Translations under genes and position numbers: made by a program | Notes under the pieces: model-generated | Told to the model about the DNA's origin: nothing | Seen by the model: the letters and a program-made list of their open reading frames with translations, nothing else | Database searches by the model: none | Source of the DNA: Alphaproteobacteria bacterium | GTDB lineage: Bacteria > Pseudomonadota > Alphaproteobacteria > Sphingomonadales > SMXR01 | Reading direction: 5' to 3' | NCBI GenBank assembly: GCA_030634465.1 | Contig: DAOWAS010000001.1 | Span: 3,780-67,779, forward strand | DNA length: 64,000 nt | In this document: positions 6,890 through 53,921 of the stretch, piece by piece | How positions within the stretch are numbered: the first letter of the stretch is position 1 | Layout of the letters: the number at the start of each line of letters is the position of its first letter

Positions 6890-7564
6890 ATGAATATGCG
6901 TCTAGACCAAAATATTTCAGAGCAGATTGAAGCCATAAAGCTTAAAGAAAACAAACCTTTAATCATTTCCGATGCTGATGAGGTTTTAGTTCATTTTGCC
7001 TCGCCTTTAGAGCAATTTTTCGACACTAATAACATGTCTATTTCATTCACCAGCTATAAACTGTTTGGCAACGTGCATTTTAAAGATAGCAAAAAGGCGG
7101 TTTCCAAGGGACAAATACTTGAACTTTTGCAAAGCTTTTTCATTGAAAAGGTTCATACCTGCCCACCAGTTGAGGGGGTAAAAACGGCTTTAGACAGTTT
7201 AAAAGAAAAATATCAAATAATAATTTTGACCAACACCCCCCATGAGGCAAAAGAACGTCGCATCAAAGCACTTAAGGGTTTGGGTTTAGATTTTCCTTTA
7301 ATTTCTAACGATGGTCACAAGGGTTTGGCTGTGCGTGAAATATGTAAAAACCTTAACGCACCTGCGCTTTTCTTAGATGACATCCCCCACCATCATACCT
7401 CAGTGGCGGAACATGCCCCGCACGTGCACCGCATTCACTTTGTTGCTGACACACGTCTAGCAAAGCTATTGCCCCCTGCGGCTGACAGCCACGAACGAAT
7501 TGACAACTGGGCTGATGCTGAGGCGTATATTTCTAAATATTTTAGAGATTATCTCTCACGCTAG
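6890..7564 (+). CDS. HAD-superfamily hydrolase-like protein, function unknown
   Basis: HAD motif I ISDADEVL (DxDxV), motif II IIILTNT and motif IV FLDD. No closer family was recognised. Confidence 0.55.
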   Translation: MNMRLDQNISEQIEAIKLKENKPLIISDADEVLVHFASPLEQFFDTNNMSISFTSYKLFGNVHFKDSKKAVSKGQILELLQSFFIEKVHTCPPVEGVKTALDSLKEKYQIIILTNTPHEAKERRIKALKGLGLDFPLISNDGHKGLAVREICKNLNAPALFLDDIPHHHTSVAEHAPHVHRIHFVADTRLAKLLPPAADSHERIDNWADAEAYISKYFRDYLSR

Positions 7565-7574
7565 TTAGCTGTTT

Positions 7575-7838
7575 TTTATAGCTCACGGCTGTCGCAGATA
7601 AATCTGCTTCGCCTGCGCATACGCTTCGTATTAACTCGGACGGGCATGCGCCCTACGTTACTCAGCTCATATTACAACTAACTGGGTGTGTTGCCGTTAG
7701 ATAAAAAATGGACGAGTAGCTATAATAGCTATGAGGACTAGCGACCAAGCGGGAGCGCAGCCTGCGTGGCGCCAAAGGGCGTAAGCCCTGAACGCAATAA
7801 GCCACGGCGAAGATTTAGCTTCTGCCGTGAGCTATAAA
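7575..7838. repeat. 264-bp long imperfect inverted repeat (MITE-like element or structured RNA locus)
   Basis: Perfect 15-bp termini: TTTATAGCTCACGGC (7575-7589) and GCCGTGAGCTATAAA (7824-7838). Arm similarity continues inward with indels. There is a central 15-nt palindrome TAGCTATAATAGCTA (7717-7731). No credible ORF lies inside. Confidence 0.6.
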
Positions 7839-7981
7839 TTATCCCAAAAACCCTTTTTTACCTGCCAAGCAAATATGTCATGGCAAAAACTTCCCATTAT
7901 CCAACTATTTCTCCCAATAAAAAGGCCATCCCCTTGGAATATAAGCATTTTTTATATTGGCACAGTTAATGCATTCTAACC

Positions 7982-8713
7982 ATGCAAGAACGACCCTTTA
8001 TTTTGGAGACGATTATGAACCGTTCAGCCATACTTGCTGAGAAGCTATCAGAAAACTACAGCCCCTATGTTGGCAGGCTGGCTGAACGCTTGGTCAACAG
8101 CAGTCAGAAAAATAATGACATTATCAACGAAGGCAGTTGGGGTCTTATTGAAGAGATATTTGGTTTTGCTATTGAGGCTGAACGTCAGCTTATTGAGCAA
8201 GAAGATAAGATAACCCTGTTAGAGGGCCTGTCATCAACCGATGACCTTACAGGCTTAGCAAACAGGCGTGGTCTTTTAGAATTTTTAGATGGTAGCATTG
8301 CCCGCGCACGTCGCCACGGTCGCCGTGGTATTGTTGGCTATTTTGACCTAGACTGGTTTAAAGACATTAACGACACCCTTGGTCACCAAGCAGGTGACGA
8401 GGTGTTAAAACATGTGGGTGATGTTCTTTCACAAAATATCAGACGGTGCGACCTTGCCGCAAGACCAGGTGGCGATGAGTTTATTGTAGTGTTAGATGGT
8501 GCCGAATTAGACCTTGGTACCGAGCGGTTGAAATTTATTCAAAACATTATCAACACCGTGCCATTTAACAATAAAGGCCTGCCAGTTGACCTGAACATCA
8601 GCCTTGGTTTTTCATATTTCAGCGCCAGTTCTGACCCACTAAAAATATTGGAAGAGGCAGACCAAGCAATGTACAGCCAAAAGGGTGAACCTTTGAAAAA
8701 AACTGCCCACTAA
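7982..8713 (+). CDS. Diguanylate cyclase (GGDEF domain) with no recognisable sensor domain
   Basis: GGDEF domain with an active-site GGDEF and an RxxD I-site (RRCDLAARPGGDEF). The N-terminal ~80 aa are predicted helical only. An alternative start at ATG 8015 has a better SD (GGAG 8 nt upstream). Confidence 0.85.
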   Translation: MQERPFILETIMNRSAILAEKLSENYSPYVGRLAERLVNSSQKNNDIINEGSWGLIEEIFGFAIEAERQLIEQEDKITLLEGLSSTDDLTGLANRRGLLEFLDGSIARARRHGRRGIVGYFDLDWFKDINDTLGHQAGDEVLKHVGDVLSQNIRRCDLAARPGGDEFIVVLDGAELDLGTERLKFIQNIINTVPFNNKGLPVDLNISLGFSYFSASSDPLKILEEADQAMYSQKGEPLKKTAH

Positions 8714-10399: not shown

Positions 10400-10407
10400 G
10401 GGTGTTT

Positions 10408-12774
10408 TTATTTAGATGCCTTAGCTTTTTTCTTTGTTGTCTTTTTCTTAGCAGTTTTTTTGCTGGCTTTTGGTTTGCTCGTAGCACTAACACCTGCCAC
10501 CACTTCAAACACTAACTCATTATTTTTTTCGTGTACCTGCACTTCGCCGCCTTTGACCAGTTTGCCAAATAACAATTCGTCAGCCAACGGCTTTTTAATA
10601 TACTCTTGGATAACCCTGCCAAGTGGACGGGCGCCAAACTGTTTGTCATAGCCCTTTTTAGCCAGCCATTTTTTGGCATTGTCATCAAGGGCAATGTGAA
10701 CATTACGGTCACCCAACTGCATTTCTAGCTCTAAAATAAACTTCTCAACCACTTTTGAAATAACCTCAGGTGACAAGTTGGCAAAGCTTATGGTGGCATC
10801 CAAACGGTTGCGGAACTCAGGTGTGAACAAGCGTTTTATGGCCTCTTTATCATCACCCACACGCTCTTCACGGCCAAAACCAATGGCAGATTTTTCCAAC
10901 TCGCTGGCACCTGCATTTGTGGTCATTATCAGCACCACATTCCTAAAGTCCACATGCTTGCCGTTATGGTCGGTCAGGGTGCCATTATCCATAACCTGCA
11001 ACAAAATATTAAACAGGTCTGGGTGCGCCTTTTCCACCTCGTCCAGCAATAAAATTGAATGGGGGTGCTGGTCTATGGCATCGGTCAACAAACCACCTTG
11101 GTCAAAACCAACATAGCCTGGCGGTGCGCCAATAAGCCGTGAAATTGAATGCCGCTCCATATATTCTGACATATCAAAACGGTGCAGTTCCATGCCCATA
11201 ACGTGGGACAATTGCCGCGCCACCTCGGTTTTACCCACCCCTGTGGGGCCTGAAAATAAATAACTGCCAATTGGCTTGTTAGGGTCACGCAGACCTGCTC
11301 TTGCCAGCTTTATAGACGCGGCCAAGGCATCAATGGCGGTATCTTGCCCAAAGACAACGTGCTTCAGGTCTTTAGCAAGGTTTTTCATAATACGCTTATC
11401 ATCACGAGAAACAGATTTTGGCGGTATACGGGCAATGCTGGCAATTACGTTTTCAACGTCTTTTACACTTATGTTCACCTTGCGCTTACCCTTGGGTAAT
11501 AGCATTTGCGCGGCACCTACCTCGTCAATTACATCAATTGCCTTATCGGGCAATTTGCGGTCACTAATATAGCGCGCCGAAAGGTCAACCGCAGCTTTAA
11601 TGGCATCGTTTGAATATTTAACCCCGTGATATTTTTCATAATAAGGCTTTAGCCCCATCATAATTTTAACCGCATCATCTATGGATGGCTCCAAAACATC
11701 AATTTTTTGAAAACGACGCAACAAAGCGCGGTCTTTTTCAAAGTGCGAGCGAAACTCTTTATATGTGGTTGAACCCATGCAACGAAGCTGCCCTGATGCC
11801 AAAGCAGGCTTTAAAAGGTTAGAGGCATCCATAGCACCACCACTGGTGGCACCAGCACCAATAACAGTGTGAATTTCATCGATAAACAACACTGCGTCTT
11901 CGTGTTCTTCCAATTCCTTAACCACACCTTTTAAGCGTTCTTCAAAGTCACCACGGTATCTGGTTCCAGCTAACAATGCGCCCATATCAAGCGAATAAAC
12001 CGTAGTGTTTTTCAACACTTCTGGCACATTTCCATTAACAATATTAAGGGCCAAACCCTCAGCCAGCGCGGTTTTGCCCACCCCGCTTGAACCCACAAAC
12101 AATGGATTGTTTTTGGTGCGGCGACATAAAATTTGCACTGCACGGTCAATTTCAGCCTCACGACCAATAAGTGGATCAATGCGCCCATCTTGGGCTTTTT
12201 TGTTCAGGTCAACACAGTAACTGCCAAGGGCGCTAGTGTCTTCTTTACCGCCCATATCATCGCCGTGCTGTTCTTGACCTTCATCGCCTTCATGCTCAAT
12301 TCCGCTAACAGCTTTGTTTTCGCTGTAGCCTGATGCCTTGGCAATGCCGTGGGAAATGTAGCTAACGGCATCTAACCGCGTCATGTCCTGCTGTTGCAAG
12401 AAAAACACCGCATTGCTTTCACGCTCGGAAAACAGCGCCACCAAAACATTCGCACCTGTTGTTTCGGTTCGGCCTGAGCTTTGCACATGCAATATTGCTC
12501 GCTGTATAACCCGTTGAAAACCAGCAGTTGGCGTGGTTTCCAACTCATCTTCCTTAATGGTCAGGCTTTCCATTTCATGCTCTAGATAATGCTCTAGCTT
12601 TGCACGAAGTATTTCAACATCCACATTACACGCCCGCAAAACCGCCGCACCATCTTGGTCATCTATCAGGCTTAATAACAAATGCTCTAGCGTGGCATAC
12701 TCATGGCGCCTGCTACTGGCATCAGCCAAGGCGCGGTGGAGGGTGTCTTCTAACAATGGTGAAAAACTAGCCAT
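10408..12774 (-). CDS. clpA: ATP-dependent Clp protease ATP-binding subunit ClpA
   Basis: 788 aa with an N-terminal Clp_N repeat and two AAA+ modules (Walker A GSSGVGKT and GPTGVGKT). It lies downstream of clpS and carries an extra Lys-rich C-terminal tail. Confidence 0.95.
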
Positions 12775-44042: not shown

Positions 44043-44123
44043 ACTTTTCCTTTTGACTTTTCCTTAGCCCTACCCCTAGCACAAATAGTAATTAAACTAA
44101 TATGCTTAATATATTTCATTTAT

Positions 44124-44154
44124 TCCAAGTGTCCGCAATATTGCGTCCAAGTGT
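44124..44154. promoter_or_regulatory. Composite repeat motif upstream of degP
   Basis: TCCAAGTGT (44124-44132), a perfect 12-bp palindrome CGCAATATTGCG (44134-44145), then TCCAAGTGT (44146-44154). It lies 82-112 nt upstream of the degP ATG. Confidence 0.35.
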
Positions 44155-44211
44155 TAGTAAAATGCGATAAAGCCGCACATTTACTATGAAATGCACGACT
44201 TTATCTTAATT

Positions 44212-44403
44212 TTATTTGGCTAACCAAACAATGAAAACACCAACAGCAACGGCTACTAGCCCCACATCTCTTACTTTGCTATCGGGCATTTCCAAAAGCT
44301 TAGCAACGGTTCGTTTCATTCCGCTTGGAAAAAGAGCATATAACAATCCCTCTAACACAAACACCAAACCAATAGCGCTTAGTACCACACTGCCAGTTTC
44401 CAC
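44212..44403 (-). CDS. DUF2065-family small membrane protein
   Basis: 63 aa with two helices and the LEGLLYALFP motif. It has the conserved position between hflC and degP. Confidence 0.8.
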   Translation of the reverse strand: METGSVVLSAIGLVFVLEGLLYALFPSGMKRTVAKLLEMPDSKVRDVGLVAVAVGVFIVWLAK

Positions 44404-44421
44404 TAATTCAACGCCTCTCTA

Positions 44422-47018: not shown

Positions 47019-47203
47019 AAAACCTTATCAAGCAACTCAGGAAAGAACGTGAGCTTTCTCAAGCAGCACTTGGTGAGCAACTAGGGGTATCGCGGCAAAC
47101 AATTATTGCGCTGGAAAATGGAAAATATGACCCTAGCTTACCACTTGCTTTTTCCATAGCGGCCCTGTTTGAAAGAAAAATTGAAGATATATTCCTACCA
47201 TAG
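47015..47203 (+). CDS. Short XRE/Cro-family helix-turn-helix transcriptional regulator
   Basis: 62 aa: MKNLIKQLRKERELSQAALGEQLGVSRQTIIALENGKYDPSLPLAFSIAALF, a canonical HTH_3-type fold. The track ORF 46949-47203 includes an upstream out-of-context extension. Confidence 0.85.
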   Translation: MKNLIKQLRKERELSQAALGEQLGVSRQTIIALENGKYDPSLPLAFSIAALFERKIEDIFLP

Positions 47204-47338
47204 CTAATTGCTTCCCTACTGAAGCAGAAGGGCTTATTGAAATTTTCTAATTTAATAGTGCAAAAATATAAAAACGTGCTAAATGCTAGAAACACATAAG
47301 CCCTTCAGTGCAATTGAAAATTAACAAATGGGAATGCC

Positions 47339-51159: not shown

Positions 51160-51237
51160 CCTAAAAATAAAATTTCAATTAATCTCGCAAATCAGCACAC
51201 TAAGCCTTTAAAAACCCATAATACTACCCTATATAGA

Positions 51238-51598
51238 GGGTGCTAGCTTGCTAGCTATGGCGATAAACGACGTATGTAATAGACATTTCGGACCCGGGGG
51301 CGGTACCCGGCGCCTCCACCATAAGTATTTGTAATATAAAGCTTTATAGCGAACAAATATTTATGTGGGGGCGAAATAGGATCGACGGATGTTCAAAGAT
51401 ACGAATCTTTTGCTCGGCATGATACCGCCGTGATGGGTCACTTTTTTAGATGCCAATGATAACGAGGCTCTAGCAATTGCTGCATAACTAACTGCCTAAC
51501 GGCACGAAGTTAAGCAAAAATAGCGCGGTCGTGGGATGTAACCGGGCAACAGAATACAATTCCCGCGGTTTGGGTGGTGCCGGGCAACAGAAACCACC
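51238..51598 (+). ncRNA. ssrA: Two-piece (circularly permuted) tmRNA: acceptor piece, excised intervening hairpin, coding piece
   Basis: The acceptor piece ends with a T-arm CCGGG-GGCGGTA-CCCGG then CGCCTCC-ACCA (to 51321). The coding piece starts GGGGGCGAAATAGGATCGACGG (51367). This forms a 7-bp acceptor stem with the G3:U pair. The tag ORF GCC AAT GAT AAC GAG GCT CTA GCA ATT GCT GCA TAA (51452-51487) encodes ANDNEALAIAA. Outer boundaries are approximate. Confidence 0.9.
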
Positions 51599-51651: not shown

Positions 51652-52248
51652 ATGTCAGATCAGTACTTTGACTATGACCAGATGATACAAGAAGCGCTAA
51701 AAGGTGTTGTTGTAAAAATTCTGGAAGACGTATCGCAAAACGGACTAAAGGGTGACCATCATTATTATGTGGCCTTTCGCACCCATGACGAGGGGGTGCA
51801 AATCCCGCCACAATTAAAACAACGCTACCCAGATGAAATGACTATTGTTATTCAGCATCGCTATTGGGGGCTAAACATACAAAAAAAATATTTCGAAATT
51901 GGCCTTAGCTTTGACAATAAGCCAGAGCTGTTGGTTATTCCGTATGCGGCTATTATCGGCTTTGTTGACCCTACGGCACAGTTTGCCTTGCAGTTTGAAG
52001 ATGCCCAAGACGTGGCCTCTAACGACACTGGTGTAGAGGATGGCGCAACATCTGATGCGGTTATTGAAGTGGGTTTTGAGAACGCGGTAGAAGATATAAA
52101 AGAAGCTGATAGCAAAGACATCTCACCTGCCAAAGACGGGCCACCCGCCAAAAACACTAAGGCCGCTAAAAACACGAAAGCTACTAAAGACACTGGCAAC
52201 GATGCCCCAAAAGTTATTACCTTGGATGCATTCCGTAAAAAGAAATAA
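51652..52248 (+). CDS. sspB: ClpXP adaptor SspB (alpha-proteobacterial type)
   Basis: The N-terminal domain parallels the SspB fold (HHYYVAFRTHDEGVQIP...MTIVIQHRYWGL...IPYAAIIGFVDP). It has a disordered acidic/Lys linker and a C-terminal ClpX-binding-like tail LDAFRKKK. Confidence 0.8.
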   Translation: MSDQYFDYDQMIQEALKGVVVKILEDVSQNGLKGDHHYYVAFRTHDEGVQIPPQLKQRYPDEMTIVIQHRYWGLNIQKKYFEIGLSFDNKPELLVIPYAAIIGFVDPTAQFALQFEDAQDVASNDTGVEDGATSDAVIEVGFENAVEDIKEADSKDISPAKDGPPAKNTKAAKNTKATKDTGNDAPKVITLDAFRKKK

Positions 52249-53658: not shown

Positions 53659-53684
53659 GAGCCAAATGTTTAGGAGTCAGTGCG

Positions 53685-53921
53685 ATTAAAAACTCAACAA
53701 AAATAGAAAAACACTCTTTAAAAATTGCTGGTCACACAACCAGCATTTCCATAGAGGGTATTTTTTGGGAAGTTTTAAAAGACATCGCCAAAGAAAAGGG
53801 TAAAAGCCTAAACGCCTTGGTTGAGGAAATTGACCTAGGTCGCATGAGCGCAGATGACCCTAGTAACCTGTCTAGCAGTTTACGAGTATTTGTTATGGCC
53901 TGGATGCAACGAAAGTCTTAG
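53685..53921 (+). CDS. Ribbon-helix-helix (RHH_4-like) small protein; start codon non-canonical or unresolved
   Basis: My own translation gives ...IKNSTKIEKHSLKIAGHTTSISIEGIFWEVLKDIAKEKGKSLNALVEEIDLGRMSADDPSNLSSSLRVFVMAWMQRKS. The (K/R)S(V/L).IAGH.TS(I/V)S.E..FW pattern is typical of this family. There is no ATG/GTG/TTG in frame after the upstream stop. ATT at 53685 has AGGAG 8 nt upstream. Confidence 0.65.
   Translation: MKNSTKIEKHSLKIAGHTTSISIEGIFWEVLKDIAKEKGKSLNALVEEIDLGRMSADDPSNLSSSLRVFVMAWMQRKS

Follow-up and report, generated by a model that had tools for sequence, protein, structure and literature searches.

An inverted-repeat element between HAD hydrolase and diguanylate cyclase genes is probably a MITE of an uncultured marine alphaproteobacterium

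The 64-kb stretch of DNA analysed here (the window) is alphaproteobacterial core genome, with a permuted alpha-type tmRNA, a GC content of 45%, and housekeeping genes in all 52 of its large ORFs (e.g. topA, rnr, pleD-divK, clpA-clpS, mreBC, putA, ligA, and uvrD). Neither a transposase nor an integrase or RAYT gene was found within these 64 kb. Near one end of the window, a gene for a HAD-family hydrolase is followed on the same strand by a gene for a GGDEF diguanylate cyclase, whose product is identical to an NCBI-listed protein from a MAG labelled 'Sphingomonadales bacterium', and a 264-bp inverted-repeat element occupies much of the spacer between the two (Table 1). Read as its longest ORF, the cyclase gene would begin at 7982; in public gene calls and in all orthologues the start is the ATG at 8015, which is preceded by GGAGAC and is probably the start of the gene. 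The public protein collection records the HAD protein at the length given in Table 1; an exact look-up of the 224-aa HAD ORF found no record, and the same was true of the ligase ORF.

Table 1. Features of the HAD-GGDEF locus and of the empty FemAB-like/clpA site, in window coordinates
Feature	Coordinates	Strand	Remarks
HAD-family hydrolase gene (upstream)	6896..7564	+	222 aa in public protein collection
X-type repeat terminus TATCTCTCACGCTAG	7550..7564	+	encodes the last four HAD codons and stop (Y L S R stop)
Inverted-repeat element (MITE-like)	7575..7838	.	264 bp; from inverted repeat and between-locus comparison
Left terminal inverted repeat TTTATAGCTCACGGC	7575..7589	+	perfect 15 bp with right end
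Left subterminal hairpin GCAGA-TAAA-TCTGC	7594..7607	+	from arm comparison and fold
GGGC-ATGC-GCCC hairpin, left arm	7642..7653	+	
Hypervariable internal patch	7665..7707	.	replaced in L032, 15 nt shorter
Central palindrome TAGCTATAATAGCTA	7717..7731	.	contains TATAAT (7721-7726); 17 nt, GTAGCTATAATAGCTAC, in L032
Conserved core block	7727..7810	.	approximately 97-100% identical in window, L032, and second-locus copy L036
GGGC-GTAA-GCCC hairpin, right arm	7777..7788	+	
Right terminal hairpin, approximately 34 nt	7800..7833	+	AGC-CACGGC-GAAG pairs with CTTC-T-GCCGTG-AGCT
Right subterminal hairpin GAAG-ATTTAG-CTTC	7809..7822	+	
Right terminal inverted repeat GCCGTGAGCTATAAA	7824..7838	+	variants GCCGCGAGCTATAAA in L032, GCCATGAGCTATA in L036
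Sigma-54-type promoter box TGGCAC-AGTTA-ATGC of the cyclase gene	7958..7972	+	downstream of and outside the element
GGDEF diguanylate cyclase gene	8015..8713	+	232 aa from ATG 8015
Empty target site	10400..10416	.	8-nt spacer and stop-codon region, convergent FemAB-like/clpA

The element begins at the 11th nucleotide past the HAD stop codon (TAG, 7562-7564) and is bounded by a perfect inverted repeat in which all 15 bp match, both as originally predicted. A second-order Markov model predicts 0.08 perfect inverted repeats of 15 bp within 400 nt per 64 kb. The terminal 15-mer occurs nowhere else in the 64-kb window with up to two mismatches allowed, and blastn of the element against the window returned the self-match only. 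The ends read TA/TAGCTC...GAGCTA/TA, and comparison between loci places the homologous core at approximately 7577-7836, with TA flanking each side. In two other copies, on contigs L032 and L036, the terminal repeat is kept with one substitution. The only other long inverted repeat in the window, of 14 bp (31105/31370), falls within a putA-like coding sequence, and we dismissed it as a chance occurrence.

Homology between the two arms had been described as extending for approximately 95 nt, which overstates it. It is clear for approximately 40 nt, consisting of the terminal repeat followed by AG.TAAATCT and then CTTCGCC, beyond which it becomes patchy and partly non-collinear because of an extra hairpin of approximately 40 nt on the right arm. 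When the 15-nt ends are removed, the arm alignment is of marginal significance (score 28 vs 20.7 +/- 4.1, with 64 of 1000 shuffles as good). As a whole, the element folds more stably than its shuffled versions (z = -4.2 and -3.9 for RNA of the two strands, -4.2 for DNA), and each terminus also folds as a local hairpin of 35-45 nt, one strand of which is the terminal repeat. The right terminal hairpin is the clearest case, with a self-inverted score of 32 vs 18.2 +/- 3.1 (none of 500 shuffles as good) and a DNA fold of -11.6 kcal/mol. The element is longer in open frame than the original limit of approximately 23 codons, with a 47-codon GTG ORF on the minus strand (7662-7805), and a search of its six-frame translation, including this ORF, against 5.8 billion proteins found no homologue.

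Internally, the element is built of small modules. The two GGGC-N4-GCCC hairpins of the original prediction are present at 7642-7653 (GGGCATGCGCCC) and 7777-7788 (GGGCGTAAGCCC), as is the central palindrome, whose TATAAT has TAGATA 17 nt upstream. The left and right subterminal hairpins differ by one compensated pair (C-G vs A-T). In L032 and L036 the inner sequence of the right subterminal hairpin is swapped, with a GGC...GCC-closed hairpin retained. Moreover, the motif ATA-N-S-Y-CACGG recurs in several modules, and the conserved core block carries the blocks AGCTAYGAGG, TGCGTGGC, and GCCACGG, which are common to a second, shorter repeat type described below (X-type). The hypervariable patch holds both the TAGATA '-35' hexamer and a look-alike of the terminal repeat (7693-7707), neither of which is conserved. 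We rejected both this look-alike and a model of two tandem half-elements, since L032 does not conserve the patch and an alignment of direct halves was not significant.

Gene order around the locus (rpmG, pleD, divK, HAD, GGDEF, YjgF-like, FemAB-like, and clpA) is shared with five loci from related species, whose cyclase orthologues are 79-86% identical; the cyclase gene, previously described as an orphan, is syntenic in all relatives. The HAD-GGDEF spacer measures 450 nt here vs 172-189 nt in these loci (L004, L005, L006, L015, and L016), and none of the five has the element in its orthologous spacer. Since the difference in spacer length approximates the size of the element and synteny is identical, the element of approximately 260 bp is an insertion, and the spacers of the other species are too diverged to place its insertion point at the HAD locus to the nucleotide.

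Contigs of the same species were found through exact-protein look-ups and cluster members, and derive from three samples of one study (SAMN18200496, SAMN18200497, and SAMN18200499), with identities to the window of 99.4-99.9% (sample ...496), 96.5% (sample ...497), and 94.1% (sample ...499). All of the comparison sequences are short metagenome contigs, for which chimeric assembly is formally possible. On contig L017 the element is identical to the window copy. At the HAD-GGDEF site, contig L032 (sample ...499) has a variant allele, in which 7611-7664 and 7708-7800 are approximately 98% identical to the window, the patch at 7665-7707 is replaced by sequence 15 nt shorter, the interior of the right subterminal hairpin is replaced, and the terminal repeat has one substitution. 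Contig L036, also from sample ...499, contains a second copy of the element at a different locus (nhmmer E = 2e-18), where it is inverted and directly follows the FemAB-like stop codon. This copy is approximately 97% identical over 7727-7810 and has its own version of the hairpin as well as the terminal repeat GCCATGAGCTATA; as both differ from those of L032 in the same sample, it is a separate copy and not a mis-join. Overall, the copies are mosaics in which blocks of 97-100% identity stand beside replaced hairpin loops.

The second locus also helps to define the ends of the element. The two loci cease to be homologous at ...GAGCTATA, so that the end of the element lies no more than 2 nt from the inverted-repeat boundary and has TA on its outer side. 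In addition, Logan contig L018 (k = 31) breaks off exactly 30 nt (k-1) inside the left arm, where a repeat boundary at 7575 would end it; with low coverage in that sample, this contig end is supportive only. TA (or TATA) flanks both ends of the window copy. Of the second copy only one junction is assembled, and the flanks are AT-rich. The left flank at the HAD locus has GCTGTTTTTT in common with the FemAB-side flank of the L036 copy, which could reflect a target preference, or else recombinational co-transfer of flanking DNA instead of transposition.

A second insertion hotspot is the 8-nt spacer that separates the convergent FemAB-like and clpA genes. The window has no insert there; L001, from a 99.4%-identical strain, carries an X-type repeat (region compared, L001:2557-2644), and L036, from a 94%-identical strain, carries the inverted 264-type element (region compared, L036:1467-1589). 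The X-type junction in L001 fits insertion at the TA at window positions 10413-10414, and an insertion there would alter the last ClpA codons; no copy combined both junctions with an isogenic empty site. The occupied loci seen are only two, and lie just 2.6 kb apart.

The X-type repeat was found at both of these sites. In L033 (sample ...497), the HAD stop codon is followed by TATCTCTCACGCTAG, a small hairpin, and then CAGCTACGAGGTGCGTGGCATACGCCACGGTCAGCC..., in place of the 264-bp element, and in L001 (sample ...496) the same sequence lies directly 3' of the FemAB-like gene with a different small hairpin. The two repeats (L001:2570-2644 and L033:2020-2155) are 96% identical over 50 nt. The X-type repeat shares collinear blocks with 7722-7806 of the element (score 29.5 vs 18.8 +/- 3.3; none of 300 shuffles as good), and its terminus, TA followed by TCTCTCACGCTAG, resembles that of the element, TA followed by TAGCTCACGGCTG. 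In the window, the HAD gene itself ends in an X-type terminus, and its orthologues in other species have different C-terminal ends; repeat DNA therefore supplies the present HAD C-terminus, and the HAD site has been struck more than once. An open frame runs across the X-type repeat and is taken as non-coding because no protein homologue of it was found. A reading of the L033 tail as the 3' end of clpA was considered and rejected.

Outside the species, we found no relative of the element. Exact patterns of the arms or of the terminal-repeat pair had no match in GTDB species genomes; in JGI metagenomes they gave none and then 12 matches, which blastn indicated to be chance, and in IMG/VR 8 matches of 15-16 nt, also chance. 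X-type motif scans returned chance matches or none, and a 'distant' blastn search of plasmids and phages gave nothing below E = 0.9. The DNA collections searched were evidently without this species' own genome, and these negatives say little about copy number within it.

The original prediction proposed that the element might donate an outward promoter to the GGDEF gene. The TAGATA-17-TATAAT arrangement is oriented toward the cyclase gene and agrees with the consensus at 10 of 12 positions; sigma-70-like sites number 1 found vs 1.6 expected by chance. The promoter proposal is not supported, given this chance-level match, a -35 hexamer that is not conserved, and the presence of a separate promoter region further downstream. 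Specifically, the approximately 175 nt following the element (7839-8014) are conserved in all five related-species loci. The cyclase gene is therefore equipped with a promoter region of its own, undisturbed by the insertion. A sigma-54-type box lies within it, with counterparts in the element-free relatives (TGGCAC-N5-TTGC in L004, L005, L006, and L015; TGGCAT-N5-TTGC in L016). Judged from these sequences, the diguanylate cyclase could be RpoN-dependent, a candidate relationship worth testing. A conserved upstream block near the box (CCTGCCAAGCAAAT...TGGCA) could be an enhancer site.

The proposal of an sRNA or 5' leader controlling the cyclase gene likewise found no support, as the region has no Rfam match, the element is absent from relatives with the same gene, and the second copy, oppositely oriented, is found between two convergent genes. 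With E values of up to 10 admitted, the best Rfam matches overlapping the region had E values of at least 5.7 and at most 16 bits vs thresholds of 39-45, and at the gathering score Rfam returned only the tmRNA in the whole window. At the element, no terminator was called and no U-tract follows the stem. The element may have a cruciform or protein-binding role, and the data do not require one.

We conclude that the element is probably a miniature transposon of the MITE class, i.e. a non-coding, non-autonomous DNA transposon, belonging to a family not described before and residing in one uncultured marine alphaproteobacterial species. Of the earlier idea of a MITE-like element with an outward promoter, the MITE part is upheld by the absence of the element from the spacers of relatives and by the second, inverted copy elsewhere, and the promoter part is not. 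The traits of bacterial MITEs compiled in PMC2229807, namely terminal inverted repeats, TA ends, a long stem-loop, and lack of coding capacity, as well as filled and empty sites, at least two loci, and size variants built of blocks, all have their match here. The element falls within the small non-coding class of approximately 100-300 bp without a transposase gene (264 bp, longest ORF 47 codons), has terminal inverted repeats with 5'-TA-3' termini and a long stem-loop fold, and occurs in more than one dispersed copy with filled and empty sites, although it exceeds the 100-200 bp typical of bacterial MITEs.

We hypothesize that a transposase encoded elsewhere in the genome would bind the terminal repeats (TATAGCTCAYGGC) and move the element, that insertion would target TA in T-rich sequence at the very 3' ends of genes, and that recombination between copies would then shuffle the modules. 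At the HAD-GGDEF locus the element is most likely a neutral passenger. By analogy with Correia, ERIC, and REP sequences, it could, if co-transcribed with HAD, provide a long 3' stem-loop affecting mRNA decay or termination.

Among known systems, the Correia/NEMIS elements of Neisseria are likewise non-coding, with TA at both ends and long stem-loops. Correia terminal inverted repeats begin with TATAGC, and the agreement with our element is limited to these first six bases and does not extend over the 26-bp Correia terminal repeat. The element also differs from Correia sequences in length (264 bp vs 107-155 bp), in host (an alphaproteobacterium vs Neisseria), and in the tiny number of copies seen vs hundreds, and it contains no IHF site (WATCAANNNNTTR), which long-form Correia elements have at their centre. 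Size variants built of blocks, filled and empty sites between strains, and intergenic positions near gene ends are further features common to both (PMC2229807). The ERIC/IRU, RUP, and YPAL families resemble the element as small imperfect palindromes inserted near gene ends, and some of them are co-transcribed with or fused in frame to upstream genes, to which the X-type terminus in HAD may be compared. The element is, however, unrelated to them in sequence, longer, and bounded by perfect repeats of 15 bp vs 7-9 bp (Table 1 of PMC2229807).

The CcrM-associated intergenic repeats (CIRs) of Caulobacter and Brucella are similarly alphaproteobacterial, intergenic, and non-coding, and consist of two stem-loop arms with a linker. 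Conversely, CIRs are defined by a GANTC methylation site exposed in a loop and are without terminal inverted repeats, whereas the element has such repeats and no GANTC occurs within 7575-7838. REP, BIME, and REPIN sequences and the rhizobial RIME are mosaics of hairpin modules of varying make-up, placed at gene 3' ends or between convergent genes; REP-type palindromic units carry a 5' GTAG and go with a RAYT gene. Hairpin modules and a GTAG-containing block are present in the element. Yet the element is a unit of 264 bp bounded by inverted repeats and present in one copy per 64 kb, with no RAYT gene in the window.

A live, though unlikely, rival is that the repeats form a mosaic of palindromic units of the REP/BIME or REPIN kind. 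Recombination or a transposase of the RAYT type (Y1) would then have spread them, and not cut-and-paste, and the 'terminal repeat' would be the outer strand of two inverted hairpin units. The local hairpin of 35-45 nt at each end would fit such an arrangement, as would a modular family whose blocks are gained, lost, and swapped between copies, the recurrence of ATA-N-S-Y-CACGG in several modules, and the fact that both occupied sites adjoin the 3' end of a gene and that one is flanked by convergent genes. Moreover, the block best conserved in the 264-type and X-type repeats, AGCTACGAGG, contains GTAG on its other strand (CCTCGTAGCT). What speaks for a MITE instead is that the perfect match is inverted, not direct, and reaches the very ends of the element with TA outside, and that a unit of approximately 260 bp far exceeds the 20-40 nt of REP units; REPs are also usually very abundant, as opposed to one copy in 64 kb, and the window is without a RAYT gene. 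A further reading takes the element, mobile or not, as co-opted into regulation, whether by serving the GGDEF gene as an outward sigma-70 promoter or a 5' leader, or by acting on the HAD mRNA as a 3' stem-loop that terminates or stabilises it. The promoter-like match of 10 of 12 positions toward the cyclase gene, the very stable long hairpin immediately 3' of the HAD stop, and a HAD C-terminus and stop already derived from repeat DNA are all compatible with co-option, which we nonetheless consider quite improbable, given that such promoter-like matches are as numerous as chance predicts, that the -35 hexamer lies in the patch replaced in L032, and that the sigma-54-type promoter region of approximately 175 nt is conserved downstream in species with and without the element. 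Nor does a stem without a U-tract and without a called terminator, or a second copy inverted between convergent genes, favour a regulatory function.

A structured small RNA gene, or a one-off palindromic relic without mobility, is very unlikely. Although a fold z of approximately -4 on both strands and a GNRA-type loop (GTAA) on the right arm would suit a structured RNA, no Rfam family reaches E = 0.1, no pair of promoter and terminator is present, and the element is absent from all related species, while from copy to copy there is free replacement of loops and of one internal patch; a one-off relic is excluded by the second copy at another locus. Finally, and at long odds, the repeats might represent a modular system of hairpin cassettes directed to the extreme 3' ends of genes, whose C-termini and stop codons it would rewrite (in HAD, and potentially in ClpA). 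If true, the wholesale exchange of subterminal loops from copy to copy, with the closing stems kept, would point to an unusual mechanism of mobilisation or diversification, e.g. a Y1/RAYT-like or hairpin-guided enzyme with a T-run and TA as target, or alternatively domestication of the repeats as 3'-end mRNA elements.

Interpretation as a MITE accounts for an odd palindrome in a compact core-genome region without a new regulatory RNA, and would add a new MITE family from a poorly sampled marine alphaproteobacterial lineage in which insertions differ among strains 94-99% identical. It also provides a case in which repeat DNA supplies the last codons and stop of a conserved gene. In practical terms the gain is modest: the element may serve as a strain marker, and it accounts for several metagenome contigs that break at it. 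More generally, the locus advises caution, as TATAAT boxes inside AT-rich mobile palindromes are easily misread as promoters.

Several further observations concern the window as a whole. Other long intergenic gaps (263-379 nt) lie at 44043-44421, 47019-47338, and 53659-53921 and have no sequence in common with the element. GANTC, the CcrM/HinfI site, occurs 5 times (33819, 36032, 45598, 51403, and 53674) vs 110.5 +/- 9.6 expected from dinucleotide shuffles, an approximately 20-fold depletion that is still approximately 8-fold under a maximal-order Markov model, and the related-species loci L004 and L006 have 0 and 1 sites, respectively, in 6-7 kb. CCWGG, CCGG, and GCWGC are 2- to 6-fold depleted in the window. 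This depletion of sites suggests long-standing restriction pressure. The tmRNA gene is of the two-piece (permuted) alphaproteobacterial kind (51203-51563, 247.9 bits) and is adjoined by sspB at 51652-52248.
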